Origin: an uncultured Candidatus Peribacteria bacterium
Lineage (GTDB): Bacteria > Patescibacteriota > Gracilibacteria > CAIRYL01
Assembly: GCA_964509985.1 (NCBI GenBank)
Contig: CAZDZQ010000007.1
Location: forward strand, 2,139 to 66,138
Length of the DNA stretch: 64,000 nucleotides
Direction of reading: 5' to 3'
Shown here in pieces: positions 6,145 through 61,034 of the stretch (positions within the stretch are counted from its first letter, which is position 1; every line of letters starts with the position of its first letter). The notes below the pieces were generated by a model that made no database searches, was not told the DNA's origin, and was given only the letters and a program-made list of their open reading frames with translations. The position numbers and the translations under genes were made by a program.

Positions 6145-6168
6145 TCTTTCTAAACAAAAAAATTTACT

Positions 6169-7533: not shown

Positions 7534-7588
7534 AAACTTATATCCGTGTTATAATAAATTAAAAAATAATTATATAAAAAAATATTTT

Positions 7589-9223
7589 ATGAGTATAGAT
7601 AACATAGATAAAAACGACTCTAAAGCATTAACCGAAAAAGAAATTCAAATTCAAGAAGCCGAGTTAAAATTAGCAAAACAAAAATTAGAACTCGAAAAAC
7701 AAAAATCTAGCACAGAAACAAAAACAAAAACAAAAATAGATGAAATTAAAGAAAAATTTAGAAAAGGTGCTATTAAACTTGCACTAGGAAGTACAATTGG
7801 AGGAGTTGCTATAACAGCACTTTCAGCATTATCTGGTTCTGATAAAAATTCAACAAAAGAAGCAATAAATGAATCCATTGAAACCTTGACTGATGATAAA
7901 AAATCAACATTAGAAAAATTTTTAAGTTTTATTTCCAATATCACCAAACTATGGAATGGAGATGATGAAAATAAAAATGAAGATAAAAAAAATGTTGATA
8001 AATCTATTAACTTAAGAAAAGAATATTCAGGAAATGGATCATTATTAGATATGGCTCTTTATCTTATAGGTAAAAATGAATCAAGCAATGGAACTAATGT
8101 TTTAAATATTAATGATGGTGGTGCTATTTCTTTTGGTATTTTTCAATTTCAAAAAGAATATTTACAAGGATTTATAGAAACATTAAATAATTCAAAACCA
8201 AAACAAGCAACAAAACTTAATGAACTTATTAAAAAAATAAAAATATATAAAAATCAAAAATCAATTCCTGCTGAAGAATTAAAAAACTTAAAAAATGAAG
8301 CCATAGAAATTTCTAATACATGCAAACACGAACAATTAGCATATATGAGAGATGTAATTGTTCCAAATTCTATATCAAGTGTAACAGAATCTCTACCTTC
8401 ATTTTTGAAAAACAATAGAAGCGATATAACAACTGTTATGATTTTGAATATAGTTCATCAGTTTGGAACAAAAAATAGAAAAAATATAATAATAAAAGCA
8501 GGAGAAAATATTACCACAGAAGAAGAATTTCAAGAAAATTTAATTAAAATTGCACCCACATTTGTAAATCAAGGAGATACCAAAAAAGACAAAACAAAAG
8601 CGGAAATAATAAAAAAAGTGATGATAAAACGTCTTAAAGAGTTGCATAATTTAAAAAATACCAAAAGAAATCCTGTAAAAATTGAACAAAATGCAGAATA
8701 TAAAATTCCAAAAAATGTATTAACAAACAAAAATGCATTAATTCAAAAATATAATATTGAAACACCAAATAAACGCCTTATTTCCATTGCAGATTATCAT
8801 AATAATACTTTATGGATTTTTAACCATGGACAAGTTATATCTTTTCCAATGGCTGGATCTAAAAAAGAAAAAGGGAACGGAGAAGGGCTGGGAACAAAAG
8901 AAAATTCACACAAAACACCAACTGGTGATTTTAAATTAAGTGTAAAAAACAATACCAATGATCCTAGTGCTATTGCAGGAGCAAATGGGCAAGCAAATAT
9001 TATTGGAGCAACTATACATATGGATGGATTAGATACAAATAATAAAAATACAAGAAGTAGAAATATATTAACCCACGGTTGGAAAATTTTTGATAAAAAT
9101 AATAATCTTACAAGGAGTACAGGATGTATACATCTTTCAGGAGAAGACTCTGTAAAATATGCGAATTTAATACAGAAAGAAATTGATAATAATAAAAATG
9201 TTTATATGAAAATAATGAGTTAA
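7589..9223 (+). CDS. Membrane-anchored cell-wall enzyme: possible SLT/lysozyme-like domain plus C-terminal L,D-transpeptidase (YkuD) domain
   Basis: I chose the ATG at 7589 because the track ORF start at 7409 overlaps the upstream gene. Coiled-coil N-terminus and TM segment GAIKLALGSTIGGVAITALSAL. IGKNESS...GGAISFGIFQFQ resembles the ES...GA.G..Q lytic-transglycosylase motif. C-terminal HKTPTGDF...ILTHGW...TRSTGCIHLS matches the YkuD H..(S/T)xGC catalytic motif. Confidence 0.6.
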   Translation: MSIDNIDKNDSKALTEKEIQIQEAELKLAKQKLELEKQKSSTETKTKTKIDEIKEKFRKGAIKLALGSTIGGVAITALSALSGSDKNSTKEAINESIETLTDDKKSTLEKFLSFISNITKLWNGDDENKNEDKKNVDKSINLRKEYSGNGSLLDMALYLIGKNESSNGTNVLNINDGGAISFGIFQFQKEYLQGFIETLNNSKPKQATKLNELIKKIKIYKNQKSIPAEELKNLKNEAIEISNTCKHEQLAYMRDVIVPNSISSVTESLPSFLKNNRSDITTVMILNIVHQFGTKNRKNIIIKAGENITTEEEFQENLIKIAPTFVNQGDTKKDKTKAEIIKKVMIKRLKELHNLKNTKRNPVKIEQNAEYKIPKNVLTNKNALIQKYNIETPNKRLISIADYHNNTLWIFNHGQVISFPMAGSKKEKGNGEGLGTKENSHKTPTGDFKLSVKNNTNDPSAIAGANGQANIIGATIHMDGLDTNNKNTRSRNILTHGWKIFDKNNNLTRSTGCIHLSGEDSVKYANLIQKEIDNNKNVYMKIMS

Positions 9224-33919: not shown

Positions 33920-34294
33920 TTAATAATAATCTCCAACCATTGATGCTGCACTATTTGGACCATTAAAAAGTCGTTCAAATACAAGTGTTAATGCATCTCT
34001 AATTCTCTCAAAACTAATATATTCTCCAACTGCAAAATTTGCTACATTCCCTAGTAAAAAAATAAAACCTAAGGCTAAAAATGCAACAACTAAACCAATT
34101 ACTGCATACCGAATTGTTCCCATTGCACTTTTTATTTTTTCATCATCTCCTGAAGAAAAAATAAGTGCAAGCCCTCCGTAAAACATATAATATATACATA
34201 ATGCTGCCGCAAAAGATAAAAACAACCCAATTCCCAAATTTAAAAGAAAAATTGGATCAAAAATTGTTTGTATTGTAAATGCACTATCTCCCAT
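33920..34294 (-). CDS. Small two-TM protein resembling CPR/Firmicute T4SS pilin (TrbC/VirB2-like, PF18895-type)
   Basis: 124 aa. LFLSFAAALCIYYMFYGGLALIFSSGDDEKIKSAMGTIRYAVIGLVVAFLALGFIF follows the hydrophobic - GG - S.GD..K...A...I..A.IGL - hydrophobic pattern of that family. Confidence 0.5.
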   Translation of the reverse strand: MGDSAFTIQTIFDPIFLLNLGIGLFLSFAAALCIYYMFYGGLALIFSSGDDEKIKSAMGTIRYAVIGLVVAFLALGFIFLLGNVANFAVGEYISFERIRDALTLVFERLFNGPNSAASMVGDYY

Positions 34295-44514: not shown

Positions 44515-44891
44515 AGTAACAATATAAAATAATAATTGTGTAAGAAACAAGAAAAGCAATTTTTTTACATTTAGAAAAAACTTTTAAGCCTTTATCTATT
44601 CACATTCTTTTTTAAAATAACATATGAATATGAAAAAAAAAACAAAAGATTTTACACAAAATACATTTAATTCCTTAGATAAAAGATTAGAAATATACAC
44701 TCCAGATTTAACAGAATTTAAAAGTATTGAAATTACAAAATTAAAAGAAATTGAAAATACAGGAGAAGAATATTGCAACATAAAAAATTAAATAAAAAAA
44801 TCCTAAAATGAATTTAAATAGTAAAAAAATCTAATTTTTTGTATTATTATTATATATAATTAAAAAAATATTTTATATTTTACAAAAAAAC

Positions 44892-46094
44892 ATGAGTGAA
44901 TTAAAAATTTTAGACGGAAATCATGCTGCGGCAGAAGCTATGCGACAAATTGCCCCAGAAGTTGTTCCTGCATATCCCATTACCCCAACTTCATATATTT
45001 TTGAAGTTTTTACAAAATATGTAAATAATGGATTGGTTCAAAGTGAAGTTATGACTGTGGAAAGTGAGCATGCTGCAATGTCGGCATGTGTTGGGGCCTG
45101 TGCCGCAGGTGGGAGAGTTATGACCGCGACGGCATCGCAAGGATTAAAACTTATGAGTGAAGTATTATGGAATGCATCTGGATTGCGACTTCCAATTGTT
45201 TTGATAAATGGAAATAGAGCATTAGGTGCGCCACTTTCTATTCATTGCGACCATTCAGATTCATTAGCAGAGAGAGATTGTGGATTTATTCAAATGTATG
45301 CAAAAGATGCACAAGAAATGTACGATTTATTACTTCAATCATTTTTAATTGCAGAACATGACGATGTTCGAACTCCTATAATGATTAACATGGACGCATT
45401 TTTGGTAACGCATACACATCAAGAAATTGCAGTAGAATCAGATAAAAAAGTGAAAGAATTTATTGGAAAAGCAAATATTAAAAATGCATTACTTGATATC
45501 GACAACCCCGTTTCATATGGTGGGGCAACTCGTCCAGATTATTACCAAGAAGCAAGAAGAAATCAGCTTCAAGGGCTTTTAAATGCATATGAAGTAATTT
45601 CTAAAATTGGATCAGATTTTAATAAAAAATTTGGAAGATCAGAAAATTATAATTATTCAAGTTTTGGAGAAGATTATTTATTGGACGATGCAGAGTTTGT
45701 ATATGTGCAAATGGGGTCATCTTTTGGAACTATTAAAAATGCAGTAGACCAAATGCGAAAAAACGGAATTAAAGCTGGGATTTTACGACTTCGAACATAT
45801 CGACCATTTCCAAGCGAATACGTGCGACAAATGTTACAAGATGCAAAAATTGTGATGGTTATGGATAAAACTTCACCAGCAGGAGGAGAATCGGCACCGC
45901 TTTCTATGGAAGTAAAAAGTGCAATGTATGATGGCGAAAACAAACCAACTATTGTCCCATTTATATACGGGCTGGGGTCAAAAGATTTTAATCCAAATCA
46001 TGCAAAAGAAATGTTGGATTTAGCAAAAAAAGTAGATGCAGGAGAAGAAGAAATTTTTTCTGAAGAATCTGTTTGGGTTAATTTGAGAGGGTAG
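44892..46094 (+). CDS. porA: Pyruvate/2-oxoacid:ferredoxin oxidoreductase alpha subunit (PorA-type), without beta/gamma/delta partners in the window
   Basis: 400 aa. LDGNHAAAEAMRQIAPEVVPAYPITPTS, ESEHAAMSACVGACAAGGRVMTATASQGL, RLRTYRPFP. Confidence 0.8.
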   Translation: MSELKILDGNHAAAEAMRQIAPEVVPAYPITPTSYIFEVFTKYVNNGLVQSEVMTVESEHAAMSACVGACAAGGRVMTATASQGLKLMSEVLWNASGLRLPIVLINGNRALGAPLSIHCDHSDSLAERDCGFIQMYAKDAQEMYDLLLQSFLIAEHDDVRTPIMINMDAFLVTHTHQEIAVESDKKVKEFIGKANIKNALLDIDNPVSYGGATRPDYYQEARRNQLQGLLNAYEVISKIGSDFNKKFGRSENYNYSSFGEDYLLDDAEFVYVQMGSSFGTIKNAVDQMRKNGIKAGILRLRTYRPFPSEYVRQMLQDAKIVMVMDKTSPAGGESAPLSMEVKSAMYDGENKPTIVPFIYGLGSKDFNPNHAKEMLDLAKKVDAGEEEIFSEESVWVNLRG

Positions 46095-46115: not shown

Positions 46116-48683
46116 ATGAATTATTACAACGCAGAAAAACTAATAACTGAAAATGAACAATCATGCTTAGAGTATTTGAAAAAAAATTTAGATGATTCTT
46201 ATCAAGTTTTTTGTAAGCCATTTTTTGAGTCTTCTCAAATTGATTTTGTTGTTTTAAAAGAAGGAGAAAAAGTTTTGTTAATAAAAGTTTGCGAAAATTT
46301 TTCTCAAAAAGAATTTTGTAAAAATGCAGTAAAAAAAGTAAAAAATGATATTACAGATAGGTATATACCGGAATTAATAGAATTATATAAAAATAATTCA
46401 AAAGGATATTCTTTAATGCAAAGTTTAATTTGGTGTAATGATTCCCTTGAAGATTCAAAAAATAACTATAAATGCTCATTAAAAAATTTCTTAAAACCAA
46501 GTTATGAAGGACTAATGCTTGATAATAACTTACAAACAAAATTTTTAGCGTATTTAGAAGAAAGAAATCTTGTTTTGGAAATAAAAAATAATTCTATTCC
46601 TCAATTTAAAGATTTTACACAAAAACAAAAAAATCTTTCTAAAAGTATTGAAGGGAAAATTCAAAAAATCAAAGGAGTTGCAGGGGCAGGAAAGACGCTG
46701 GTTCTTGCTCAACGGGCAATTAATGCTTATGAAAGAACTAAAGAAAAAGTTTTGATTTTGACTTACAATAAATCGATTGTTTCTCATATTAAAAATGTAA
46801 TATGGAATTTAAGCGGATCTTATAATTATTCTCGTTTTTGCATTGATAATGTTGATAATTTTATTTCAGCACAAAACAATAATGCGTTATTAGGAATGTC
46901 AAATTTTCCAACTTTAGAAGAAATTTCTAAAACATTTCATGATAAAAAAAATATTTTACCCAAATATAAAGCAATTTTTATTGATGAAATTCAAGATTGG
47001 GATAATGAAAAAATTACACTTATAAAAGAAATTTTTCTTGCAGATGATGGGGAATTTGTTGTTTTTGGAGACGAAAAACAAGGAATTTATGGAAAAGAAA
47101 ATCTTGAGATTTTTTCAGAAGAAGAATGGAGTAATTTATCCGAAGCAACAACTTTTCGAATGTTTCCTAAAATTGCAGAGCTTGCAACAAATTTTCAAAA
47201 ATATTTTTTAAAAGAAGAATACAATGAAATAGAAGAAATTACTTCAGCTCAACAAGAACTCTTTACAGGAGAAATTTTATATTTTCAATTTTATAAAAAA
47301 ACCAATTCAGTTGATCAATTAACTCAAAAAATTATTGATTTATTACAAGCAAATACAAAAAATGCAGCAGTAGTGTCTTACAGAGAAAATATTCTTCAAG
47401 ATATTGATTTTAAAATTCGTGAAACAAAGAGAAAAACAATTACAACTTTTCTTTCTAAGGAATTTTTAAAACACACAGAAAAATTTCCAAAAAATCAACG
47501 AGAAGCAAAAAAAGGAGAAAAAAAGACGAGTTTACAATCAAATTTTTCTCTTACAAAAGAAGGAATTAAACTTTCTACAATTCATAGTTTTAAAGGGTAT
47601 GAAGCAGATACTCTTATCTTAATTATTCAATCGTGGGAAGATAATGATGAATTGATTTATACAGCTTTAACACGAGCCAAAGAAAAACTTATTGTCTTGA
47701 ATATTGAAAATTTACGGTATAAAGAATTTTTCAAAAAAAATAGTAAAATTTTAATAAAAAAGCCTTTTGAATTTACAGTTTTTGAAACTCAAGAGGACAA
47801 TTTTGAGCTAAAAAAACAATTACTAGAATATAAACAAAAACTAAAAAGCACTGAAAATTTAGAAAGTAAAATAACAAATTTTGAAGAAGAAAAAAAAGAA
47901 TTAAAAAATGAAATTTCAGAAAAAGAAGAAAAAATTTCTAAATTGCGAAAAGACTTGAGACGTAAAAAAAGTATCCTAAGGATATTTGAAAAATCAACCA
48001 ATCAAGAAGAAAAATTACAAAAACAAATTGAAGAATTAGAGAAAGAAAAGAAGGAGTTAGAGAATAAAATAAATAAGAAAGAAAAGAAGTTTAAGGACAA
48101 GATTGAGAGCTTTAAAAAAGAGTATGATGAAAATTTAAAGAAAGAAAAGCAAAGGTTTGAAAATGAGAAAGATAGGGCGGTTGAGAAAGCAGAGAATAAA
48201 TATTATTTTGAAATTAACGAATTAAAGAAAAAGAATGAAAAATTATCTAATAATGATAATTTTATTACATTAGAAAGTTATCAAGATAAAAATATAACAG
48301 TCTTTTTATTTGGAAATAGTTCTTTAAAAGAAAAATATATTAATGGAATATTTAAACAAATAAATGAAAATCTTGAAAAGATAAGTTTTACTTATGAAAT
48401 TATTGCATTAGAATATAAAGAAACAGAGTCTAATGCTAAAAATTTAGAAAATAAAATAGCAATAAAAAATAAAGGAGAATATTTAGTTATTATTGGTGCA
48501 CATGAGCATTCTCTAAAAAATATAGATAAAAAATCTTCTGGATCATTTACTGAATATCTAAAAAAATATGGAGGAGAATTTATTTTAGAAGTTAGAAAAA
48601 ATCAAGATGGTAATAAATTAGATTCTATCGGAAAAACAAATTTAAGAGAATGTTTAGATAAAGGTATTAAATTGTTAAAATAA
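46116..48683 (+). CDS. NERD-like nuclease-fold N-domain + SF1 (UvrD_C_2/AAA_19-type) helicase + long K/E coiled coil + uncharacterised C-terminal domain
   Basis: 855 aa. SCLEYLKKNLDDSYQVF...SQIDFVVLKEGEKVLLIKVCEN (NERD-like). Walker A GVAGAGKT (46674-46697). FIDEIQDW, FGDEKQGIYG, STIHSFKGYEAD, YTALTRAKEKLIVL. Heptad-rich K/E segment at about 47800-48250. C-terminal domain at about 48260-48680. Confidence 0.7.
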   Translation: MNYYNAEKLITENEQSCLEYLKKNLDDSYQVFCKPFFESSQIDFVVLKEGEKVLLIKVCENFSQKEFCKNAVKKVKNDITDRYIPELIELYKNNSKGYSLMQSLIWCNDSLEDSKNNYKCSLKNFLKPSYEGLMLDNNLQTKFLAYLEERNLVLEIKNNSIPQFKDFTQKQKNLSKSIEGKIQKIKGVAGAGKTLVLAQRAINAYERTKEKVLILTYNKSIVSHIKNVIWNLSGSYNYSRFCIDNVDNFISAQNNNALLGMSNFPTLEEISKTFHDKKNILPKYKAIFIDEIQDWDNEKITLIKEIFLADDGEFVVFGDEKQGIYGKENLEIFSEEEWSNLSEATTFRMFPKIAELATNFQKYFLKEEYNEIEEITSAQQELFTGEILYFQFYKKTNSVDQLTQKIIDLLQANTKNAAVVSYRENILQDIDFKIRETKRKTITTFLSKEFLKHTEKFPKNQREAKKGEKKTSLQSNFSLTKEGIKLSTIHSFKGYEADTLILIIQSWEDNDELIYTALTRAKEKLIVLNIENLRYKEFFKKNSKILIKKPFEFTVFETQEDNFELKKQLLEYKQKLKSTENLESKITNFEEEKKELKNEISEKEEKISKLRKDLRRKKSILRIFEKSTNQEEKLQKQIEELEKEKKELENKINKKEKKFKDKIESFKKEYDENLKKEKQRFENEKDRAVEKAENKYYFEINELKKKNEKLSNNDNFITLESYQDKNITVFLFGNSSLKEKYINGIFKQINENLEKISFTYEIIALEYKETESNAKNLENKIAIKNKGEYLVIIGAHEHSLKNIDKKSSGSFTEYLKKYGGEFILEVRKNQDGNKLDSIGKTNLRECLDKGIKLLK

Positions 48684-48701
48684 AAAATTTAAAATTAGTA
48701 T

Positions 48702-51272
48702 ATGAAAAAAGAAATTAAAAGTAAAGAATTTATAAATATAATCGACAGAATTAAAAAAAAATTACCAAATCAAAAAAATAGCAGAGATAAAGAATTTATA
48801 GCAATAAGAATTTATTTAGAGTCAAAAAACAAATTAAATTCGGATCAGTTAGAAGAAATTAAAGATATTTTGTGGTCTAGGATTAAGTATATTAAAAAGA
48901 AAATTGCTAACGAAAGAATAAATATTAAATTTATTGAAAGAGAAAAAAGAGAAAAAAGAGAAAAAAAACAAAAAGTTATAGTAAAAGAAATCCTTCCAAT
49001 TCTTGAGTCTTTTGATTTTTTTAAAGCAGATAAATTATTTATTGAAAATAAAAAAGTTTTTAATAAACCTCCGTTTACTAAATTGACATACGAAAAAGAA
49101 AAAGCGAAAAATATTCAAAAATATTTTGAAGAAAAATTTGTAAAAAAGGGAATAATTGAGAATGCTCCTGATTTAGAGCAAGCAGAAGCAATTGGAGCAT
49201 TAGGAAAAAATATTTTAGTTTCAGCTCGTGCAGGATCAGGAAAAACACAAACAATTTCTGGAAAAGTTGCCTTTTTAGTAAATAAATATGATGTAAAACC
49301 AGGTGAAATTTTAGTACTGTGTTTTAATAAAAGTGCTGAAGAAAATATGAAAAAAAGAATACAAAAATTTATTCCAGATTTTCAGAATGCAAAAACTTTT
49401 CATAGTTTATGTTGGTTAATTGTTTCTCCTGAAAAAGGATCTGTTTTATTTGATAATGATGGAGAGTTTTCTCCTAAAAAATACTCAGATTTTGTAAAAA
49501 AAATAATTGAAGACTATGAAAAAAAATATCCTGAATTTAAAAAAAAAATTTATAATTTTTTTCGAGAAGAATATGAAAAGTTAGATGAAAACTTATCTGA
49601 AACTAAATCTTTTGAAAATAAAAAAGAACGATATTTATATTTACGAAATCAAACAGAAACAACATTAAGTGGAGTAAATGTGAAATCCAGAGGTGAAAAA
49701 TGGATTGCGGATTTTCTTTTTGAACACGGTATTGAATTTTACTATGAACAACAATTTAGTTGGGAAAAACTAGATGAGAAGAGTTATTATCATCCTGATT
49801 TTACAATAAAAGTTGGTGATAAAAAATATATTTTAGAGCATTGGGGGATTGATGAAAATGACCCTAAAAAAGAAGTTCCTGATTTCTGGACAAAAACATG
49901 GGAGGAGTACAAAAAAGAAATGGCAAATAAACGAAATTATTTTAAAAATAATGATAAATATAAAGATAAATTTATAGAGACTTCTATTTGTGATATAGAT
50001 TATGCTTTAGATATAAAAGAACAAAGATTTGAATTTGAGAAAATTTTAAGATCAAGATTAGAAAAAAAAGGAATAAAATGTAAAAAATTATCAACAAACG
50101 AATTAATCAAAAAAGCTTGGGAGAAGCAATTATTTACACGATTAAATACATTGATTTGTCAATTTATTGGTTGGATGCAAAAACTTGAATGGGAAGAGAA
50201 AGATTTAACTGAGGAGTTAAAAAAGGGTATATATAATGAAAAACAAAAAGTATTTTGTGAAATAGGACTGAAAATCTACGAAAAATATAAAGCAGAATTA
50301 GAAAAAGAAAAAAAAATAGATTTTAATATTTTAGTGTCAAAAGCGATACAGAAAATAAAAAATGGAGAATTTTGTGTATCTCAATTTAAACATATTTTAA
50401 TTGATGAATTTCAAGATTTTTCACAATTGTTTCAAAATTTAATTGATGTAATTAGAGATAAAAATCAAAATGTAAATTTATTCTGCGTTGGTGATGATTG
50501 GCAACTTATAAACGGATTTGCAGGTTCTGATGAAAAATTTTTTAGAAAGTTTAAAGAAAAAGCTAATACAAGAATAATTTCAACTTGTTACAGAAGTACT
50601 CTAAAAGTTATTGAAAATGGAAATAATTTTGCAAAAAAATATAAGAAAACTTTTATTGGAAAAGAATCAAAAAACAACAAACGTAATAAAGGAGAAATTA
50701 AAAATATATATATTGATAAAGTTTATATAGAAAATAATGCAAGAAATAAAAAAGCAGACGCAGACAATGAATTTAAAGAATATTTCAGAATAGATACAAA
50801 AGAAAAAGATGAAAAATTCTTATCATCTAGCGATTATATAAAAGTAAGATATTTAAAAAAATGTTTTGAAATTATAGAAAATAATCCAGATAAATCTTTT
50901 TTATTTCTTGCCAGAAAAAAAAGATTAAAAGGATTAGATTTATATAAATTTTTTGATAAAGATTTTAATAAAGAAGATTCTTATTTAGCAAAAGTTTTAA
51001 AAGTAAAAGAAATTAAATTTCCTAATAATTTAAAATTTCAAACAATGCATTCTTCAAAAGGACTTGAAGCAGATATTGTAATACCTCTTGATATTTGCGA
51101 AAAAACAATTCCATCAATTCATCCATCAAATGAATTATTTGAGATCTTTGGACGAACGCATGATAAAATTTTAGATGAAGAAAAAAGACTTTTTTATGTA
51201 GCTATTACGAGAGCTAAAGAAAAATTATTTATTCTAACTGAACAAGGAAACGAAAGTGAATTTATTGTATGA
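48702..51272 (+). CDS. UvrD/Rep (helicase IV-like) SF1 helicase with K/E-rich N-terminal region and embedded restriction-endonuclease-fold module
   Basis: 856 aa. REKREKREKKQK. Motif I SARAGSGKTQT, Ia VLCFNKSA, II ILIDEFQDF, III CVGDDWQLINGFAGSD, CYRS, MHSSKGLEAD, VI RLFYVAITRAKEKLFIL. Insert at about 49680-49860: SRGEKWIADFLFEHGIEFYYE...YYHPDFTIKVGDKKYILEHWG. Confidence 0.75.
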   Translation: MKKEIKSKEFINIIDRIKKKLPNQKNSRDKEFIAIRIYLESKNKLNSDQLEEIKDILWSRIKYIKKKIANERINIKFIEREKREKREKKQKVIVKEILPILESFDFFKADKLFIENKKVFNKPPFTKLTYEKEKAKNIQKYFEEKFVKKGIIENAPDLEQAEAIGALGKNILVSARAGSGKTQTISGKVAFLVNKYDVKPGEILVLCFNKSAEENMKKRIQKFIPDFQNAKTFHSLCWLIVSPEKGSVLFDNDGEFSPKKYSDFVKKIIEDYEKKYPEFKKKIYNFFREEYEKLDENLSETKSFENKKERYLYLRNQTETTLSGVNVKSRGEKWIADFLFEHGIEFYYEQQFSWEKLDEKSYYHPDFTIKVGDKKYILEHWGIDENDPKKEVPDFWTKTWEEYKKEMANKRNYFKNNDKYKDKFIETSICDIDYALDIKEQRFEFEKILRSRLEKKGIKCKKLSTNELIKKAWEKQLFTRLNTLICQFIGWMQKLEWEEKDLTEELKKGIYNEKQKVFCEIGLKIYEKYKAELEKEKKIDFNILVSKAIQKIKNGEFCVSQFKHILIDEFQDFSQLFQNLIDVIRDKNQNVNLFCVGDDWQLINGFAGSDEKFFRKFKEKANTRIISTCYRSTLKVIENGNNFAKKYKKTFIGKESKNNKRNKGEIKNIYIDKVYIENNARNKKADADNEFKEYFRIDTKEKDEKFLSSSDYIKVRYLKKCFEIIENNPDKSFLFLARKKRLKGLDLYKFFDKDFNKEDSYLAKVLKVKEIKFPNNLKFQTMHSSKGLEADIVIPLDICEKTIPSIHPSNELFEIFGRTHDKILDEEKRLFYVAITRAKEKLFILTEQGNESEFIV

Positions 51273-51365: not shown

Positions 51366-51878
51366 ATGAAACTAAACCTTAAATCATTATTCTTATTTTA
51401 CTCAAAATATATTTTTGCATTTTGCATAATATTTTTTTTAGATTTTATTACAAAAATTTTAGCAAAAATATTTTTATCAGATTTTAAAAGCATAGAAATT
51501 ATTCCAAATTTATTTAATTTAAAATTGGCATTCAATACAGGAGTTGCATTTTCTGCACCTGTTCCATATTTTTTACAAATTATATCTGGAGGACTAATGC
51601 TGGGAGGAATTTTTTGGTGGGCTAGAAATTATTTTGAAGAAATTTCTGTTGGAGAAAAATGGGGAACTACTTTGCTACTAGCAGGGGCAAGTGGGAATTT
51701 ATGGGAAAGAATTATATCCCAACATGTTACAGATTTTTTGTATTTTTATCACAATATTTTTTTTACATTACATTTTCCAATTTTTAATATAGCCGATATT
51801 TCTATATTTTTTGGAGTAATGTTGTGGTTTTTTTATTCTGTATCAGACGGTAATAATCCCAAACCAAACTCACTATAA
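51366..51878 (+). CDS. lspA: Lipoprotein signal peptidase (signal peptidase II)
   Basis: 170 aa. NTGVAFS, GASGNLWERI, VTDFL, FNIADISIFFGV. Confidence 0.85.
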   Translation: MKLNLKSLFLFYSKYIFAFCIIFFLDFITKILAKIFLSDFKSIEIIPNLFNLKLAFNTGVAFSAPVPYFLQIISGGLMLGGIFWWARNYFEEISVGEKWGTTLLLAGASGNLWERIISQHVTDFLYFYHNIFFTLHFPIFNIADISIFFGVMLWFFYSVSDGNNPKPNSL

Positions 51879-51952: not shown

Positions 51953-52075
51953 CTAAACCGAACAAGAAGTAAAAACAGAAAGTGGTGATTCAAAATTTAA
52001 TAATTTTCGTGGTCTAGTGTTTAATTTATGCACTATATCATCAAGAGTATCTTGAATTATTTCTTTAAAAATTAC
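51953..52075 (-). pseudogene. IS30-family transposase, C-terminal ~40-codon remnant
   Basis: Minus-strand frame VIFKEIIQDTLDDIVHKLNTRPRKLLNFESPLSVFTSCSV-TAG, bounded upstream by TGA. LN.RPRK.L.f.(T/S)P..VF is the conserved IS30 transposase C-terminal block. No catalytic DDE part remains. Confidence 0.5.
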
Positions 52076-52220: not shown

Positions 52221-55200
52221 TTATTCATATTTAGAATTTCCATATTCTGCATTATCATATTCATTATTTGTAGCATTGACTGTTACCGTAACCGTAGCCT
52301 CTGAACCATCTTTTCCATCTTTTGGAATATATTTAAATGTATCTGTTCCTTCAAATCCTGAATTTGCAGTATATTCAATATTTTTACCATTAATTTCAAC
52401 AGTACCATTTGCTGGATTTTGACTAATAGAAGAAATAAACAATTCATCATCTTCTGCATCTGTATCATTATCCAAAACTGCAATTGAAACCATTTGAGTT
52501 CCTGCTGTTTCTGCCGTATCATCTACACCTTCTGGTGGTTGATTACAATCTTCTCCATAAGCATTTGAACCATAAGTAGCTGTTCCATAATTAGATTCTG
52601 CACACAGCTCAACTGTTGAATCTACTGTTGCTTCATTTCCTGCAACATCTATTGCTGTAGCTGTAGCAGTTTCTCCTTCTGTTGCTGCTGGATCAAGAAC
52701 ACATTCCCATTTTCCATCAACATCTGATGTTGTTGAACATGTAGCACCACTTGGAGTTGTTACAACAATTGTAGAATTTGGATCTGCAGTTCCTCTTGCA
52801 GGATTACCTGTTGTTGGATCTGTAAGCGTTACTTCTACAACAGTATCAATTGTAATATTTGTATCAGGAGATGCATTTGACTCATTCCCTGCTAAATCAA
52901 CTTCTTTCACTGTAATTACATAATTTCCATCTGTAAGTGCTGGATTTATTGTAACAACTGGAGTATCTGTGTCTGCAGTACATGTTGCAGTCGTATTTGC
53001 TACACCATCAACATAAATAGTTAATGTAGAATCTTTTTCCGTACAAACAAGACTAATGTCTGGGGTTGTATCAGAAGTAATATTATCTGCATGACTTGAA
53101 CCCGAATCGGTTGCATCTGTCATATTTGGACCAACTGCGGGATCTGTGATTGTAGAATCAATTATAACAGTAAGAGCTAGAGATTTATCAGACTCTGTTC
53201 CTTCAGGGGTTTCTGTAAATGTAATAGAATAATCTCCATCCGTAAGTGCTGGATTTATTGTAATAATTGGCTCATCTGCATCTGATGAACAGCTTGCTGT
53301 TCCTACTGAAACATCATTTGCATATACAGTAATTGTTGCATTTTCTTGAGTACATTGAGTTTTTATATCTGGAGTTGTATCAGATGTAATATTATCTGTA
53401 TTACTAACTCCTGAATCAGTTTCATCTGTCATATCTGGTGCAGATTGAGCAGAAAGAGTAACAGTTGTTGTCGCTGTTTTTTCATTTCCTGCAATATCTG
53501 TAGATGTAATTGAAATATTTTCGCCATTTGTTGGCTCTGGAGATAATACACAAGACCAATTTCCATCTGAATCAACAACTGTAGTACATGTTGAACCACT
53601 TGTTGTTGTCGTAATAACAGTTGCATCTTTTTCTCCTGTTCCTATTATTGGATTTCCATTTGTAGGAGATACTATAGAAACTTCTGTTGCTGTATCAATA
53701 ATTACTTCTGCTGTTGAAGAAACTACAGATTCATTTCCTGCTAAATCAACTTCTTTACTTGCAAGTTGATATGTTCCATCTGTTAATTCTGTGGTAGGAG
53801 TAAGAGTAACTATATCTCCTGCATTTGTACATGTTGCAGTCGTTGTATCATCTCCATTTACAACAAGTGCAATAACAGAACCAGCTTCTTTACATACAAC
53901 CTCAATACTTGGGGTAGTATTAGATGTAATATTATCTGTATTACTCACACCTGTATCAGAATCATCTTTAAGATTTGGTGCATCTGCAGTTGCAATAGTT
54001 GCATCAACTGTAACAGTAAGATTTGGTGATAAAGGTGATGCTACGCCTTCTATAGTTTCTGTATAATTTATAACATGATCTCCATCTGCCAATTCAACAT
54101 TTGCTGTAATAGCTGGTGTAGAATCTGCAGTATCACATGTCGCAGTTCCAATATTTGTTCCATCTGAATACAATGTAAGTGTTGAACCAGCACTTAAACA
54201 TGTAAGTGTAAATTCTGGAGTTGTATCAGATGTAATATTATCTGTATTACTTACTCCTGTATCTGATGCATCTACAAGATTTGGAGCAGTAACTGGACCT
54301 TCTTCATCATCAAGATAATTTGGAATTCCGTCACCATCCACATCTCCAGCACCCTCATCTTTATCAAGTTTTGTATCACCATCAGAATCAGTATCTATAT
54401 AATTCGGTTTTCCATCTCCGTCTGTATCAAGTGGATTTTCAGGATCTGCTCCTACTTCATCTTTATCCAAAATTCCATCATTATCAGAATCGGTATCTTG
54501 GAAATTTGGAATTCCATCTGCATCTGTATCTGTATTTCCCTCTACAGAATCAAGAATACCATCTCCATCACTATCTGTATCTTTTGCATCAATAATTCCA
54601 TCTGAATCTGTATCTGTAACAACAGATGAAGTTGCATCTGATTCATCAGCATTTGTAATACCATCTGAATCTGTATCTAAATCTCCATCATTTATTCCAT
54701 CATTATCTGAATCTTGTAATAAAGGATTTGTTCCTAGAATAGCTTCATCACTATCACTTACTCCATCTCCATCATCATCTGTATCTGCTGAATTTGCAAT
54801 ACCATCTCCATCTGGATCTCCAGCAGGACCATCATTATCATTTTCATCAAGATAATTTAAAATTCCATCATTATCTGTATCTTCTGCACCTTCTTCTTCA
54901 TCAGATTTTCCATCTCCATCACTATCTGTATCTTTATAATTTGGAATTCCATCTCCGTCTGTATCAATTGGATTTTCAGGATCTGATCCTACTTCTATGT
55001 TATCATTAATATCATCTCCATCAGAATCAACAGAAAGGTAATCTGGAGTTCCATCATTATCTGTATCTGTTGGATGTGCAGAATCTGAACCAACTTCATC
55101 TTTATCTAAAATTCCATCATTATCTGAATCGGTATCTTGTGAATTAGGAATACCATCTCCATCTGCATCTCCATTTCCTTCATCTTTATCCAAAATTCCA

Positions 55201-58200
55201 TCATTATCTGAATCGGTATCTTGTGAATCAGGAATACCATCTCCATCTGCATCTCCATTTCCTTCTACACTATCCAACACTCCATCATTATCACTATCTT
55301 CATCAAGATAATTTGGAATTCCATCATTATCTGTATCTTCTGGATTTGTAGCATCATCTCCTACTTCTTCAGAATCTGGAATTCCATCTCCATCACTATC
55401 TAAATCTTGTGAATTTGGAACACCATCTTCGTCACTATCTTTATTTCCTTCAACACTATCTAAAATTCCATCATTATCTGAATCGGTATCAAGAGAATCA
55501 ATTGTTCCATCATTATCTGTATCTGTTTTATTTGAAGAATCTGATGATTCATCTTTATTTTTAATACCATCTCCATCTGCATCTTCATCTCCATCTGATA
55601 TACCGTCACCATCGGTATCTGATTTTAATGGATCCGTTCCAAGGATTGCCTCATCTGCATCACTTACACCGTCCCCATCATCATCATTATCAGGATTTGT
55701 ATCATCTTGGTTTAATTTTCCATCTCCATCTAAATCTCCTGTTGGACCGTCTTCATCATTACTATCTAAATAATTTGGGATACCATCTCCATCATTATCC
55801 TCAGAACCCTCATCTTTATCCAAAATTCCATCATTATCTGAATCGGTATCTTGTGAATTAGGAATACCATCTCCATCTGCATCTCCATTTCCTTCATCTT
55901 TATCCAAAATTCCATCATTATCTGAATCGGTATCTTGTGAATCTGGAATTCCATCTCCATCTACATCTCCATTTCCTTCTACACTATCTAAAATTCCATC
56001 ATTATCACTATCTTCATCAAGATAATTTGGAATTCCATCATTATCTGTATCTTCTGGATTTGTAGCATCATCTCCTACTTCTTCAGAATCTGGAATTCCA
56101 TCATTATCACTATCTGTATCTTGTGAATTAATAATTCCATCATTATCACTATCTAAAGCACCTTCGTTTTCATCAGAAATACCATCTCCATCACTATCTA
56201 AATCTTGTGAATTTGGAATACCATCTCCATCAATATCTCCAGAACCTTCAACATTATCTAAAATACCATCTCCATCAGAATCTGTATCTTTATAATTAGG
56301 AATACCATCTCCATCTGTATCTCCAGAACCTTCATCTTTATCCAAAATTCCATCATTATCTGAATCCGTATCTTTATAATTTGGTTTTCCATCATTATCA
56401 CTATCCTCACTTCCTTCTACAGAATCTGGAATTCCATCATTATCTGAATCGGTATCTTGTGAATCCATCAATCCATCAGTATCTGAATCTACAATTCCTT
56501 CTGCACTATCCAAAATTCCATCATTATCTGAATCGGTATCTCTAAAGTTTTCTTTTCCATCTCCGTCAATATCACTAGAACCTTCTATTTTATCTAAAAT
56601 TCCATCATTATCTGAATCGGTATCTAAAGAATCTATAATTCCATCATTATCAGAATCCACATTTCCTTCAATAGAATCTAGAATTCCATCATTATCACTA
56701 TCAGTATCTGCAAAATTTGCAATTCCATCATTATCTGTATCACTTAATACATTTGAATTTTCATTAGACTCATCTTTGTTTAATATTCCATCTCCATCTG
56801 TATCTTCATATCCATCATTAATACCATCGCCATCTGTATCTGGATTTATTGCTGATAAATCAGAAGCATTTTCATCTACATCAGAAATACCATCTCCATC
56901 ATCATCTGTATCAACATTATTACTTACTCCATCTCCATCTAAATCCCCAGTTGGACCATCTACATCATTTTCATCAAGATAATTTGAAATACCATCCCCA
57001 TCATCATCTCCTGTTCCTTCTGCTAAATCTCCTTTTCCATCATTATCAGAATCTGTATCCTGTGAATTAATAATTCCGTCATTATCCAAATCACCACTTC
57101 CTTCCAGAGAATCTGCAATACCATCTCCATCAGAATCTAAATCTCTAAAATTTGGTTGTCCATCTCCATCAATATCACCAAAACCCTCTATAGAATCTGG
57201 AATAGTATCTGCATCTGAATCTGTATCTACAGCATCTATTGTTCCATCTCCATCGGTATCTGTTTTATTAGACGAAGTTTGATCTGACTCTTGAGCATTT
57301 GTAAGCCCATCTCCATCAGCATCCTCCAAACCATCAGGAATTCCGTCATTATCAGTATCAGCATTATATACTTCTGTTCCTAATGCAATTTCATCACTAT
57401 CAGAAACTCCATCATTATCATCATCCGTATCAATATTATTTGGAGTTCCGTCATTATCAAAATCTCCATCTGCTCCATCATTTGGATTATCATCTAAATA
57501 ATCTGGAATACCGTCTCCATCAATATCAGAACTTCCTTCTGTTTTTGTTGGAACACCATCTCCATCATCATCTGTATCTTTATAATCTTTAATACCGTCA
57601 GAATCTGTATCTTTATTTCCCTCTGTACTATCTGGAATACCATCTCCATCACTATCTGTATCAAGATAATTTGGAATATTATCTCCATCTAAATCATCAG
57701 AACCTTCATCTTTATCCAAAATTCCATCTCCATCACTATCTGTATCTTGAAAATCAGGAGTTCCATCATTATCAGTATCTGCAGAACCTTCATCTTTATC
57801 TAAAATTCCATCATTATCTGAATCTTCATCTTTTATATCAATAATTCCATCTCCATCTGTATCCGTAGAAGTTGGAGAATTAGCATCAGACTCTTTTTTA
57901 TCAGGAATCCCATTATTATTAGAATCTTCATCTCCATCTAATACTCCATCATCATCAGAATCTGCATCATATGGATTAGTTCCTAATATCAATTCATCTG
58001 CATCAGAAATTCCATCATTATCATCATCTGTATCTTCATTTGCAGGATCATCATCATTGTTATTTGGAATACCATCACCATCAAAATCTCCAGTTGGACC
58101 ATCATTATCATTTGAATCTAAACTATTTGGAACACCATCTCCATCACTATCTGTAAATCCTTCAGATTGATCAGGCTTTCCATCTCCATCACTATCTGTA

Positions 58201-61034
58201 TCTAATGCATTAATAATACCATCTCCATCAATATCAGCTTGCCCTTCTATAGAATCAAGAAGTCCATCACCATCACTATCTAAATCTTGGAAATTTGGAA
58301 CACCATCTCCATCTAAATCATCTTTTCCTTCTACTGAATCTGGAATAAAATCTCCATCAGAATCTAAATCTCTCACATCTGGAGTTCCGTCATTATCAGT
58401 ATCTGCATTTCCTTCTACTGAATCTGGAATTGTATCTCCATCACTATCTTCATCTTTTACATTTGGTATATTATCTCCATCTGTATCTGTAATGGTTGAA
58501 GAATTTTCATCGGATTCATTAGCATTAATTACACCATCTCCATCAGCATCTTCTTTACCATCATTTACACCATTATTATCAGAATCTGTATCATATGGAT
58601 CTGTTCCAATTGCAAGCTCATCTGCATCATTTACACCATCAGCATCATCATCTGTATCAATAGAATTAATTAACCCATCTGAATCAACATCTCCAGTTGG
58701 TCCATCTGTATCATTCCTATCTATATTGTCTGGGATTCCATCACCATCTGTATCTAAAACTCCTTCAACAGCATCAAGTTTTCCATCTCCATCACTATCA
58801 GTATCTTTATAATTTGGAATACCATCATTGTCAGTATCTTCAGATCCTTCATCTTTATCTAAAATGCCATCTCCATCACTATCAGTATCTTTATAATTTG
58901 GAATACCATCATTATCAATATCTTCAGATCCTTCATCTTTATCTAAAATGCCATCTCCATCACTATCAGTATCTTTTGCATCAATAATTCCATCTTCATC
59001 GGTATCTGTTACAGCTTGAGATGTTTCATCAGATTCATCCCTATCTAAAATACCATCTCCATCTGTATCTTGAGTAGTATTATCAATAAGAGGATCAGAA
59101 CCTAATATTTTTTCATCTGCATCAGAAATTCCATCATTATCATCATCTGTATCTGTATTATTTGGAATTCCATCTTCATCAGCATCTCCAGTTGGACCAT
59201 CTTTATCATTATTATCAATATAATCTGGAATACCATCTCCATCTGAATCTCCAGCTTGTTCATCTTTATCCAAAACTCCATCATTATCAGAATCTGTATC
59301 TAAATAATTTGGAACACCATCTCCGTCTGTATCATCAGCACCTTCAATAGAATCTTCGATTCCATCACCATCATTGTCTAAATCTCTAAAGTTTGGCTTC
59401 CCATCTCCATCAATATCTTCCAAGCCTTCATTTTTATCCAAAATTCCATTTCCATCAGAATCTGTATCTAAAAAATTTGGTTTTCCATCTCCATCTAAGT
59501 CTTCAAATCCTTCATTTTTATCCAAAATACCGTCATTATCTGAATCTTCATCTAAATAATTTGGAATTCCATCATTATCAGAATCATCTAATCCTTCATT
59601 TTTATCTAAAATTCCATCATTATCAGAATCTTCATCTAAATAATTTGGATTAAAATCTTCATCTGTATCTGTTTGACCTTCATCTTTATCTAAAATACCA
59701 TCATTATCTGAATCTAAATCTAAATAATTTGGAATTCCATCACCATCTTTATCCGATCTTTGTTCTTTAACATCAGGAATACTATCCCCATCAGAGTCTG
59801 AATCTAAAGCATCTAGAATTCCATCTCCATCTGTATCTGTTTTTGTTAGAGAATTTTGATTTGACTCTTGCCCATTTGTAATTCCATCATTATCAGCATC
59901 TTCTGCTGCATCAGAAATTCCATTATTATCAGTATCAATCTCTGTTGGATCCAAACCAAGAAGAACTTCATCTTCATTATTTACTCCATCTCCATCCATA
60001 TCGGCATCTTTATCATCAGGAATTCCATCATTATCAATATCCCCGTTTGGATTTGGAGCAACCGTTGGAAATGGCGTCGGTGTTCCTACAACAGTAGGAA
60101 CTGGAGTTCTTGTAGCTTCTAAAGTTGATGTCGGAATTGGTGTAACTTCTTGCGTAGGCACAGGAGTTTCAATTGGTAATGTATTATCAATTGCATCTTC
60201 TTTTTCTGAAACAACAGTATCTATTACATTTCCAGACTCATCAATATTTGTAAGTTTTACATTAATTGTTGCTCCATCTTTCGCAGGAGTTTCAAAATTA
60301 CAAGACCATGTATCATCTTCACGCACAACAGTTGTACATGTTATATCTTCACCAGACACTATTTCAGAAGTAATTTCTATCTTATCCCCTCTTCTTCCAT
60401 GTCCATTAATAACTTTTCCACTAGAAGGAAGTTTTACATCTGTATAATATGATTTTGGATAATCCTCAAAAAAATTTGAGAAAAATTTAATATTTTGCCC
60501 ATCTTCTACTGTTTTAAAATAACAAGCCCACATATTTTCTGTACCAGGTGTTACATAAAATTCATATCGTGAATCCTCACTTACTTCAGCATCTGGAATC
60601 CAATCCCAATTAATTTGAGAATTACGCATCGCGTACCCAAAAACATCATTAATTTCTGCAACAATATCTTTATTTGTAAATTCTCCATTATTTTTTCTAT
60701 TCATTAAATCAACCAAACCAGGCATATTCACTTTTCCATAAAAAATTCCTTCATTCAATGAAAATGGTGCATTATTAACACAATCCTTTACAGCTTGTGA
60801 CATTTCTGGTCCATCGTATGGATTTATAGTTCCTGTTAAAAAATCAGCAGTTAAATTAGATTTTTTAATTTTAGAATTTTCAAGAAATTCAGCTAAATAA
60901 TCTTTTTCTTTCTCAAGATTTGGAGTATTCAATTGCTGAACTCCAAAAACTGCTCCACCCACTAGTGCAACAGAGAAAACTCCTAAATAAGTTCTTTTAA
61001 GTATTTTTTCCATATTTTTTTGTTTGATATTCAT
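52221..61034 (-). CDS. Giant (2,937 aa) Asp-rich Ca-binding surface protein: thrombospondin type-3-like repeat array, Ig-like modules and cadherin/Big_9-like C-terminus
   Basis: Signal/anchor [25 protein letters not shown], then a P/T linker. About 54300-60050 encodes DxDxDGxxDxxD repeats, punctuated seven times by DG(P/A)(T/D/A)GDxDxDG...DTDDDxDGxSDxDE...G(T/S) landmarks. Four D(T/S)G(V/S)S..DNITS(D/N)TTP Ig-like modules. C-terminal VDDTAET...[11 protein letters not shown]...GTDTFKY. Confidence 0.85.
   Translation of the reverse strand: [2937 protein letters not shown]
55096..55388 (-). repeat. Intragenic 293-bp near-identical duplicate, copy 1
   Basis: Differs from 55810-56102 at 7 positions by my manual alignment. 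The offset is 714 nt (in frame). Confidence 0.85.
55810..56102 (-). repeat. Intragenic 293-bp near-identical duplicate, copy 2
   Basis: See copy 1. Both encode ...[33 protein letters not shown](I/V)LDSVEGNGD(V/A)[51 protein letters not shown]. Confidence 0.85.

Follow-up and report, generated by a model that had tools for sequence, protein, structure and literature searches.

Two adjoining SF1 helicase genes in a CPR bacterium resemble a cassette-like variant of nuclease-helicase surveillance modules

CPR bacteria (Patescibacteria) have very small genomes, and their resistance to phages and plasmids is little understood. A preliminary description of one 64,000-nucleotide stretch of CPR DNA (the window) singled out two large helicase genes in tandem and proposed that they form a two-gene nucleic-acid surveillance module. 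Do the two genes belong together, and what might they do? In the mechanical ORF listing, gene A (positions 46116..48683, 855 aa) and gene B (48702..51272, 856 aa) both lie on the + strand and start with ATG; 18 nt separate them, and A starts 21 nt past the upstream stop at 46094, in agreement with the sizes and spacings first described. Both have many strong homologues, with E-values reaching 1e-167 (A) and 1e-298 (B), and are therefore genes rather than chance ORFs. The TGA=Gly code of some Gracilibacteria was considered and ruled out: TGA terminates three ORFs including B, the end of B matches the ends of its homologues, and an ORF of 2937 codons contains no in-frame TGA.

The surroundings of the pair are housekeeping genes (AspRS, AlaRS, proB, lspA and murein genes, with an SLH protein among the immediate neighbours) and not a defence island. 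Upstream, and outside the putative module, lies the POR alpha subunit gene porA (44892..46094, +; Pfam POR_N 2.5e-66, PFOR_II), which is an orphan as previously reported, no second POR subunit being found in the gene neighbourhood. Downstream lie the signal peptidase II gene lspA (51366..51878, +; Pfam Peptidase_A8 8.6e-28) and then a short transposase remnant on the minus strand (about 51953..52060), in which about 35 codons of a C-terminus translate to ...DDIVHKLNTRPRKLLNFESPLSVF, a motif that we take to mark the IS30 family. The locus had been called accessory-looking on the basis of the orphan porA and the IS30 remnant; both exist, but the remnant is tiny and is separated from B by lspA, and the flanks are housekeeping. 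Promoter and terminator scans returned chance-level signals, with no terminator-like site on the way from porA through A and B to lspA. The window yielded no tRNA or Rfam features, and no direct or inverted repeats bound A and B as a mobile element; the notable repeats between A and B are common helicase motifs only. The overall GC content of A and B is low (0.23-0.24), and their GC3 falls inside the range of the genome, so composition is uninformative on recent transfer.

Gene A codes for an SF1 helicase preceded by a NERD-like domain. The helicase core (aa ~165-545, 46608..47750, +; Walker A Lys193, motif II Asp290/Glu291, motifs V/VI) matches Pfam AAA_19, UvrD_C_2 and Viral_helicase1. Its translation contains GVAGAGKT (K193), FIDEIQDW, FGDEKQGIYG, STIHSFKGYEAD and YTALTRAKEKLIVL, and the motif residues are invariant columns in the family alignment; all SF1 motifs previously listed for A, and likewise for B, are present. 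Hundreds of NERD+SF1 proteins align with ~62% of the length of A at 30-38% identity, the 394 homologues of A are mostly annotated with PF08378 plus UvrD domains, and A matches the PADLOC candidate C3a187 ('NERD+UvrD') at 1.2e-34 over HMM positions 193-552 of 559. By sequence similarity, A is a member of this NERD+SF1-helicase family. NERD domains are reportedly enriched in defence islands (PMC9226505). Like other members, which are ~600 aa long, A has a NERD domain followed by a compact SF1 core; it differs from them by substitutions in the NERD active site, a coiled coil of ~150 aa, a rare alpha/beta tail and a second helicase encoded directly downstream.

The NERD match of A (aa 12-104, 46149..46427, +; Pfam E=2.5e-4) is borderline, scoring 21.9 bits where the gathering cut-off is 22.1, and it aligns with the NERD domains of its relatives without a shift in register. 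Asp43 is kept, and the canonical ExK reads K57-V-C59, which replaces the catalytic Glu and Lys. Each of D, E and K is retained in 94 of the 101 N-termini aligned from the family, and the deviation is confined to the A clade, where the region reads IKVCE in both B-linked A proteins and IEVCE or IEVFE in those linked to a phosphoribosyltransferase-like (PRTase) gene. Because these active-site residues are lost, A is probably not a nuclease. The nuclease N-terminus attributed to A thus survives as a borderline NERD match with its catalytic Glu and Lys replaced, and the picture of two nuclease-bearing SF1 helicases holds for the two motors and their nuclease-fold modules but not for the active site of A.

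The K/E-rich coiled coil predicted behind the core of A (aa ~560-705, 47793..48230, +; sequence, BLASTP and alignment) is common to its close relatives (P0002-P0005), with BLASTP alignments reaching aa 634-684. The C-terminal domain that follows (aa ~706-855, 48231..48680, +) has a predicted beta-alpha-beta alternation, and of 1.84 billion representatives only P0241 (43% identity) is a true homologue. It has no match in Pfam or PADLOC, which leaves the earlier suggestion of DUF2325 without a Pfam match behind it, and a phmmer comparison with the tails of all A-family matches returned nothing. The AF2 model of the domain has a pLDDT of 48, and its Foldseek matches are only generic alpha/beta proteins. 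Identity with the common 'type 1' tail of ~750-aa NERD helicases was rejected (hhalign probability 1.4%). The domain differs between the window and the related locus L157 described below, so it cannot be a conserved B-docking domain.

Gene B encodes a UvrD-type helicase (Pfam UvrD-helicase 4e-36, UvrD_C 4.6e-14) whose translation contains ARAGSGKT (K181), LIDEFQDF, VGDDWQLINGFAGSD, CYRS, MHSSKGLEAD and FYVAITRAKEKLFIL. Motifs II-VI span 50259..51251 (+; DEFQD at 568-572, VGDDWQ, CYRS, HSSKGLEAD, VAITRAKEKL), and since ~150 aa separate motifs IV and V, there is room for a 2B-like domain. The N-terminus (aa 1-150, 48702..49151, +) is K/E-rich, helical and variable; in the alignment it is poorly conserved apart from an F..AD motif at its end, and it has no Pfam or PADLOC match. 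Between Walker A and motif II, B contains ~190 extra residues. In the AF2 model (pLDDT 92.7, element order alpha-beta-beta-beta-alpha-beta), this insert has a PD-(D/E)xK core fold (aa ~300-470, 49599..50111, +) at the position of domain 1B. Its conserved residues are K328, K333, D337, E341, H342, E349, P365-D366-F367 and E379-H380-W381; in 24 homologues with identities as low as 32%, the nuclease-fold residues show little or no variation, and B has all of them. D366 (in PDF) and E379 are conserved, the third motif is E-H-W without a Lys, and the helix-1 residues K328 and K333 are invariant. PADLOC models PDC-S68 (2.6e-13) and HEAT_CxxC_PD-DEXK (2.4e-3) match the insert, and a profile search of the PDB gave chance-level matches only (E >= 0.7, Rho GTPases). 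The endonuclease fold proposed earlier inside the B helicase therefore gains support from AF2 and Foldseek, although the Foldseek top matches (Bax1, AF1548, R2 endonuclease, McrC and Hjc) are weak, all with E-values of 6e-3 or above (6e-3 to 0.5).

By sequence comparison, B is a member of a widespread but patchy helicase-IV-like UvrD family that is usually solitary. At least 295 confirmed matches occur in a collection of 185,579 species genomes, in Cyanobacteria, Melainabacteria, Chloroflexota, Poribacteria, Proteobacteria and CPR; CPR genomes account for only 5 of the best 80 matches, with only one labelled Gracilibacteria, and two copies are present in some genomes (L012/L045, L074/L076). 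Of 126 genes immediately next to a B-family gene, about 10% strongly match defence models, among them Shedu SduA (6e-169), HEC-05 (1e-224), BrxL (3e-171) and PglX, and further relatives adjoin GmrSD, type IIG R-M or Mrr genes. Members of the family in Nostocales and Melainabacteria stand in conserved housekeeping synteny with ClpC-like, GNAT and two-component genes. A search for a characterised family member found none.

The pairing of A with B is confined to the closest relatives, and family-wide each gene normally occurs alone. A-like genes are missing within 10 kb of all 79 B-family genome loci examined, as are B-family genes from the vicinity of all 66 A-family metagenome loci. Viral contigs hold only six A-family and two B-family loci, none with both an A-like and a B-like match. 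In the terminal clade formed by B, P0122, P0125 and the B-like gene of L157, an A-like gene stands 12-18 nt upstream in three of four lineages (the window, L157 and L004) but is missing beside P0125, which also comes from a Gracilibacteria MAG. The co-directional spacing is thus kept in three different genomic contexts. L157 has an A-like gene, a 12-nt gap and then a gene 63% identical to B; a TAA interrupts the reading frame of its A-like gene, and its B-like gene terminates 14 nt short of the end of the contig. L004 has an intact B-like gene (64% identity), preceded at a distance of 12 nt by a remnant of an A-like gene (the last 138 codons). A of the window and the A-like protein of L157 are 44-48% identical, against 63-65% for the B-like partners compared with B. 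Because the A-like gene is intact only in the window, and interrupted or truncated in two of three paired lineages, selection on the pair looks weak, and its decay in L004, along with the stop in L157, suggests a B without obvious need for A. The two-gene module as first proposed stands as an adjacency within the terminal clade and fails as a family-wide association; lack of co-occurrence among homologues had been named as a sign against such a module, and it is seen at all 79 and 66 loci though not among the nearest relatives.

Other close relatives of A have a different partner. P0002 and P0003, both on Rep3 plasmid-like contigs, are followed after 16-18 nt by a PRTase gene (PADLOC ShosT 1e-9, PsyrT 3.6e-12) and then by a DprA-like gene, whose 239-aa product has a weak DprA-family match. 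ShosT and PsyrT PRTases are known defence toxins (PMC11961720; 10.1101/2025.09.30.679545). In every A-clade gene with readable downstream sequence, an effector-like gene is directly next, and the downstream module, at a distance of 12-18 nt, is a helicase resembling B in some cases and a ShosT-like PRTase accompanied by a DprA-like protein in the others. ShosTA and PsyrTA each pair a PRTase toxin with a DprA-like antitoxin. The P0002 and P0003 loci resemble PsyrTA in combining helicase, PRTase and DprA-like protein; PsyrT is a helicase-PRTase fusion (RecQ-like), whereas here the helicase is a separate NERD-SF1 protein, and the window differs from ShosTA and PsyrTA in having B as its downstream module in place of the PRTase/DprA pair. 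As a separate lead, the tails of P0005, P0002 and P0003 may be HEPN/DUF4145 domains (RNx3-5H motif; weak hhalign match, E 0.0033, probability 9.7%).

Neither protein, nor the pair, scores as a named system in Pfam, PADLOC or NCBIfam, which upholds the original claim, and the locus looks like a cassette-like variant of nuclease-helicase surveillance modules. That it is a divergent Gabija, Nhi, Hachiman or Hhe is very improbable. Gabija likewise couples a nuclease with a UvrD-family helicase in two genes, and GajB models match both proteins (B 5.6e-40, A 7e-12); a model of an RT-associated helicase, however, scores equally on B (4.4e-41), so the GajB match reflects generic UvrD similarity. The nuclease fold here is inside the B helicase, and the partner is a second SF1 helicase rather than an OLD ATPase-TOPRIM protein. 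No OLD/GajA-like domain was found in the window flanks that were scanned, and no such gene lies beside the pair in the 64-kb window; among B relatives, the sole instance is in L004, where a split gene of the OLD-like ATPase+TOPRIM type lies upstream of the one resembling B. Hachiman is opposed by the Pfam results, in which DUF1837 (HamA) is missing and the SF2-type DEAD model stays below cut-off while SF1 UvrD domains score above it. In Nhi, Hhe and AddA/RecB, as in B, a single protein chain holds both an SF1 helicase and a nuclease fold of the PD-(D/E)xK type. Nhi has its nuclease at the N-terminus, and AddA, RecB and Hhe have theirs at the C-terminus; the nuclease fold of B is internal (aa ~300-470) and replaces domain 1B, and no Nhi or Hhe model is among the PADLOC matches listed. 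Equally hard to credit is that B is a HelD-type RNA-polymerase recycling factor, with its N-terminus as secondary-channel arm and its insert as clamp arm. Like B, HelD has a helical extension at its N-terminus and a large segment inserted between Walker A and motif II (PMC8655204), but at E<=1e-3 the PDB matches of B are PcrA, UvrD and AddA with no solved HelD chain among them, the insert is a conserved alpha/beta nuclease fold rather than a helical clamp arm, the N-terminus is poorly conserved, and the distance between motifs IV and V allows a 2B-like domain.

A role of A plus B, or of B alone, in DNA repair, recombination or replication restart in a reduced CPR genome, with B as an end-processing helicase-nuclease akin to AddA/RecB or helicase IV and with neither gene having a part in defence, is less improbable but still unlikely. 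The best curated match of B is E. coli helicase IV (HelD, NF008276), which also has an N-terminal extension, followed by PcrA, UvrD and AddA; its complete UvrD-type motif set is that of UvrD/PcrA/Rep, and its best matches of solved structure are PcrA and UvrD. The conserved housekeeping neighbourhoods in Nostocales and Melainabacteria, the housekeeping flanks in the window and the unremarkable GC3 of A and B also fit such a role. Curated scores nevertheless all fall far under equivalog cut-offs (helicase IV 197.7 bits against 543; the AddA/RecB models TIGR02785 66 against 707.65 and TIGR00609 72.6 against 696), and B differs from helicase IV, UvrD, PcrA and Rep by the inserted PD-(D/E)xK fold. 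The patchy distribution of the family with two copies in some genomes, the frequency of defence genes among its neighbours and the Rep3 plasmid-like contigs of the A clade argue against repair as well. A serious possibility, if one well short of an even chance, is that A and B are independent single-gene systems, each self-sufficient or with partners elsewhere, whose adjacency is a mini defence island left by one ancestral mobile element. Both families are overwhelmingly found apart, the A clade also adjoins an unrelated ShosTA-like module and B relatives adjoin many different defence genes, as in clustered defence genes; L004, and perhaps L157, shows decay of the A-like copy next to a surviving B-like gene, and the C-terminal domain of A has been swapped between two B-linked copies. 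Against independence, the 12-18 nt same-strand spacing has been kept despite divergence of A to ~45% identity, every readable A-clade gene directly precedes an effector-like gene, and the loss of NERD catalytic residues, seen only in the A clade, argues against A being a nuclease-helicase sufficient in itself.

The explanation that we favour, tentatively and at a little under an even chance, is that A and B together make up a small, probably co-transcribed accessory cassette in the chromosome of a CPR bacterium of the low-GC 'Candidatus Gracilibacteria' type, with A as sensor and B as nuclease-helicase effector. The two proteins belong to unrelated SF1 helicase families. B would be a DNA translocase or helicase powered by ATP, cutting the DNA along which it moves; the presence of helicase and nuclease fold in one polypeptide suggests that cleavage is coupled to translocation. 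A is a divergent NERD+SF1 helicase, with the NERD catalytic residues lost and a coiled coil and rare alpha/beta tail gained. Because close A relatives always lie directly upstream of an effector-like module, we infer that A may be an accessory sensor or regulator helicase that detects some nucleic-acid structure and recruits or licenses the effector encoded downstream. The juxtaposition would have a single origin at the base of the terminal clade of B, with no family-wide rule, and the coupled pair might serve in defence or plasmid exclusion.

A further-reaching proposal, which we consider doubtful, is that A and B constitute a so far undescribed immune system, built of two helicases, in CPR bacteria and their plasmids, with A, a nuclease-dead NERD-SF1 helicase bearing a coiled coil, as a swappable sensor or licensing subunit. 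The A clade would then be a modular adaptor whose effector is B-like, with the nuclease inside domain 1B (window, L157), or a ShosTA-like PRTase/DprA toxin-antitoxin pair (L003, L007), and the B family would be a new class of stand-alone nuclease-helicase effectors. If A and B do cooperate, the upstream, sensor-like helicase of a two-helicase system has shed its own nuclease, and exchange of an A-type sensor between a nuclease-helicase and a PRTase toxin would be an example of modular immune wiring. If the adjacency is hitch-hiking, two uncharacterised members of known broad families remain; the family of B, found in at least 295 species genomes, places a restriction-endonuclease fold at the 1B-domain position of a UvrD-type motor.

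A (46116..48683, + strand, 855 aa) and B (48702..51272, + strand, 856 aa) are co-directional ORFs separated by 18 nt, as the preliminary description had observed, and every SF1 motif that it quoted was found in their translations. A starts 21 nt past the stop codon of an intact 400-aa "porA" gene (44892-46094, +), encoding a pyruvate:ferredoxin oxidoreductase alpha subunit, which is not adjoined by a gene for a beta, gamma or delta POR subunit; an unannotated ORF of 55 aa (44624-44791) lies upstream of porA. lspA is located directly downstream of B, and nothing resembling a terminator was found between any of the four genes porA, A, B and lspA. The same A-B locus is present on an ENA metagenome contig (ERZ27262694 k141_541872, 70.7 kb) and on a Logan contig. 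The genetic code is standard, since TGA ends three ORFs, including B, where it falls at the same place as the ends of the homologues.

The flanks of the pair in the window are housekeeping in character (AspRS, AlaRS, proB, an SLH protein, lspA, and murein and cell-division genes), and the pair does not lie in a defence island. Flanking repeats that would signal a mobile element were not found around A-B, and the GC3 of the two genes shows no anomaly. AspRS from this low-GC genome is 92% identical to an AspRS labelled Candidatus Gracilibacteria; the AspRS relatives P0245 (92%) and P0246 (89%) point to sister genomes. The IS30 remnant reported earlier is present downstream of lspA but amounts to approximately 35 codons of a transposase C-terminus (DDIVHKLNTRPRKLLNFESPLSVF, ∼51953-52060, - strand); it may be a trace of earlier mobile-element activity where lspA adjoins a giant surface-protein gene (52221-61034, -). 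The 2937-aa product of the latter contains bacterial TSP3 calcium-binding repeats and Big_13/Big_6 Ig-like domains and is probably a giant surface adhesin. Elsewhere in the window (33920-34294, -), next to an FtsX-like permease gene, a small protein is encoded that matches PF18895 (type IV secretion system pilin; 1.1e-7).

Homologues of A and of B each number in the hundreds in database searches, with E = 1e-113 to 1e-167 for the four closest to A and 1e-210 to 1e-298 for the closest to B. The SF1 core of A is recognized by Pfam (AAA_19, UvrD-helicase, UvrD_C_2 and Viral_helicase1), and its best PADLOC model is the candidate "C3a187, NERD+UvrD" (1.2e-34). Its N-terminus scores just under the Pfam NERD threshold (21.9 against 22.1 bits), and PF08378 is present in most of its homologues. 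When 101 family N-termini were aligned, the catalytic Asp, Glu and Lys of NERD were each found to be kept in 94, and altered residues were confined to A and its closest relatives: Glu and Lys are both gone from A and the copy at locus L157 (LLIKVCE), and Lys is gone from the homologues P0002-P0004 (LLIEVCE or LLIEVFE). Because the catalytic Glu and Lys are replaced, A is unlikely, judging from its sequence, to be an active NERD nuclease. The helicase core is followed by about 150 K/E-rich, coiled-coil-like residues, a feature common to P0002-P0005, and then by a C-terminal domain of about 150 aa.

This C-terminal domain matched nothing in Pfam or PADLOC and has no detectable relationship to the common ∼130-aa tail of NERD helicases. 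AF2 does not model it reliably (pLDDT 48), giving only a beta-alpha-beta alternation. Searched exhaustively with HMMER, 1.84 billion representatives yielded one true homologue (43% identity), the 419-aa protein P0241 encoded on Rep3 plasmid-like contigs. P0241 (L153 222-1481, and L154) has an N-terminus unlike that of A followed by a coiled coil; its contig is small and Rep3 plasmid-like, and the genes after it encode unknown proteins of 142 and 167 aa. The common ∼130-aa tail, which likewise has no match in Pfam or PADLOC, occurs in about 28 of 120 listed NERD helicases (P0006, P0009-P0016, P0004 and some 20 more), with the consensus KFxILILGEIS...EWDIxFW...LLITGQIHxHSSKGN.

The UvrD-type motif set is complete in B. 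Among curated models B fits E. coli helicase IV best, at 197.7 bits where the cut-off is 543, with PcrA, UvrD and Rep next in order; its relatives of known structure are PcrA, UvrD and AddA, and HelD is not among them. Some 390 residues separate Walker A (K181) from motif II (D568-E569), ∼190 more than in UvrD. The extra segment is the best-conserved part of the B family (consensus VKSxGEKWIADFLFEHGI...YxPDF...ILEHWGIDE). An AF2 model built from a 20-sequence alignment (pLDDT 92.7) gives it an alpha-beta-beta-beta-alpha-beta core, whose top Foldseek matches in the PDB were all PD-(D/E)xK enzymes (Bax1, AF1548, R2 endonuclease, McrC, MunI and Hjc), at weak E-values of 6e-3 to 0.5; the PADLOC models PDC-S68 (2.6e-13), PDC-S69 and HEAT_CxxC_PD-DEXK (2.4e-3) also match it. 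The model and both sets of matches support the earlier proposal that a restriction-endonuclease-fold module resides within the helicase core. The third motif of the insert reads E-H-W rather than ExK, so that it can only be called a putative nuclease.

Scanning genomes with the B-family alignment recovered 79 distinct loci (28-58% identity) spanning Gracilibacteria, Peribacteria, Saccharibacteria, Poribacteria, Melainabacteria, Chloroflexota, Nostocales, Proteobacteria and Clostridia. No A-like gene was found within 10 kb of any of the 79, and none of the 66 A-family loci from a metagenome scan with the A-family alignment has a B-family neighbour. Neighbour clustering revealed no conserved partner of B-family genes past within-lineage synteny, which in Nostocales and Melainabacteria is with housekeeping genes. 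The suggested conserved module therefore does not extend across the two families; it does recur among the nearest relatives of B, at loci L157 and L004.

At L157, a B-like gene (63% identity to B) begins 12 nt past the end of P0005, which shares 44-48% identity with A, and stops at a TAA 14 nt short of the contig end. Another TAA, in frame, separates the NERD part from the helicase of the A-like gene (161-2644); the two stops reflect either decay of the locus or an assembly error at the contig end. At L004 (5325-10474), the intact helicase P0122 (64% identical to B) lies 12 nt downstream of what is left of a P0005-like gene (82% identity), its final 138 codons (7487-7900); the 5' two-thirds of that gene have been replaced by split OLD-like genes, an ABC ATPase (5325-6293) and a TOPRIM gene (6263-7039). 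At this locus only, the split ATPase and TOPRIM gene produce a Gabija-like OLD + UvrD arrangement.

A neighbour-joining tree unites B, P0122 and P0125 in one terminal clade, and these three are also what the L157 fragment resembles most; P0125, from a Gracilibacteria MAG, is without A. Genes upstream of more distant relatives (51-56% identity) are not A-like: one lineage has a 185-aa DUF4145-like ORF and GmrSD, and another a type I S-like+DUF4145 protein, while P0126 stands at its contig start with Mrr downstream. Given the pair in the nearest relatives of B and other upstream genes in distant ones, we conclude that the juxtaposition originated at the base of this small clade, to which the pairing is limited. 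The tight spacing has been retained while the A proteins diverged to ∼45% identity, though imperfectly, as the in-frame TAA and the L004 remnant attest.

P0002 and P0003 share 47-49% identity with A; 16-18 nt downstream of each begins a pair of genes for a 220-aa PRTase and a 239-aa protein (P0003 in L003 668-4543, P0002 in L007 161-4369). The PRTase matches the PADLOC models ShosT (1e-9) and PsyrT (3.6e-12), and the 239-aa protein gives a weak DprA-family match; L003 also carries Rep3, resolvase and ParE and is plasmid-like. Both ShosTA and PsyrTA belong to the defence toxin-antitoxin systems built on a PRTase (PMC11961720; 10.1101/2025.09.30.679545); in PsyrT a helicase is fused to the PRTase. 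Together with the upstream helicase, the two genes may make up a three-gene helicase+ShosTA-like variant. Members of the A clade thus appear to be helicases placed immediately before one of several exchangeable effector modules, in keeping with the loss of the clade's own nuclease site. GC content is 26-30% at every A-clade locus and every terminal B-clade locus, consistent with a gene pool shared by low-GC CPR-type organisms and their plasmids.

Approximately one-tenth of 126 immediate B-family neighbours elsewhere match defence models strongly (Shedu, HEC-01, HEC-05, BrxL, PglX/type IIG and mad3), which suggests an association of the family with defence, though not a universal one. We tentatively favor A-B as an accessory, probably co-transcribed cassette in which B, of a widespread family usually without a partner, would be a translocating nuclease-helicase effector, and A, a nuclease-dead NERD-SF1 accessory helicase, would serve as its sensor or regulator. 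The chief alternative, that A and B are independent and only co-inherited, is a serious possibility; the separation of the families elsewhere has to be set beside the close spacing kept within the clade. A repair or housekeeping role, to be weighed between the housekeeping flanks and the defence-associated neighbours, is less likely. HelD-type RNA polymerase recycling, and membership in Gabija, Nhi, Hachiman or AddAB, do not agree with the features examined in the pair.

The preliminary interpretation of A-B as a surveillance module is thus upheld for the nuclease-fold insert and for pairing in one small clade, but not for family-wide pairing; the pair is a variation on the nuclease-helicase surveillance theme, and a new system is not demonstrated. 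Two leads are of most value: the B family, which is uncharacterised and has its putative nuclease at the 1B position, and the A clade, whose members seem to have exchanged effectors.

Upstream of B-family genes in other subclades, proteins with a DUF4145/HEPN-like "MRNLVH" motif are encoded, including a 185-aa ORF overlapping the helicase start (L006 9447-10004, L162 1808-2365) and a 508-aa type I S-like+DUF4145 protein (L158 183-1709), the latter separated from its helicase by a 210-aa ankyrin-repeat gene on the opposite strand. A comparable RNx3-5H motif, of unproven homology (hhalign probability 9.7%), occurs in the tails of P0005, P0002 and P0003. Some genomes, such as a Gastranaerophilales MAG and a Poribacteria MAG, encode two B-family paralogues (L012/L045, L074/L076), and some members (P0139, P0146) have HEAT-repeat N-termini.
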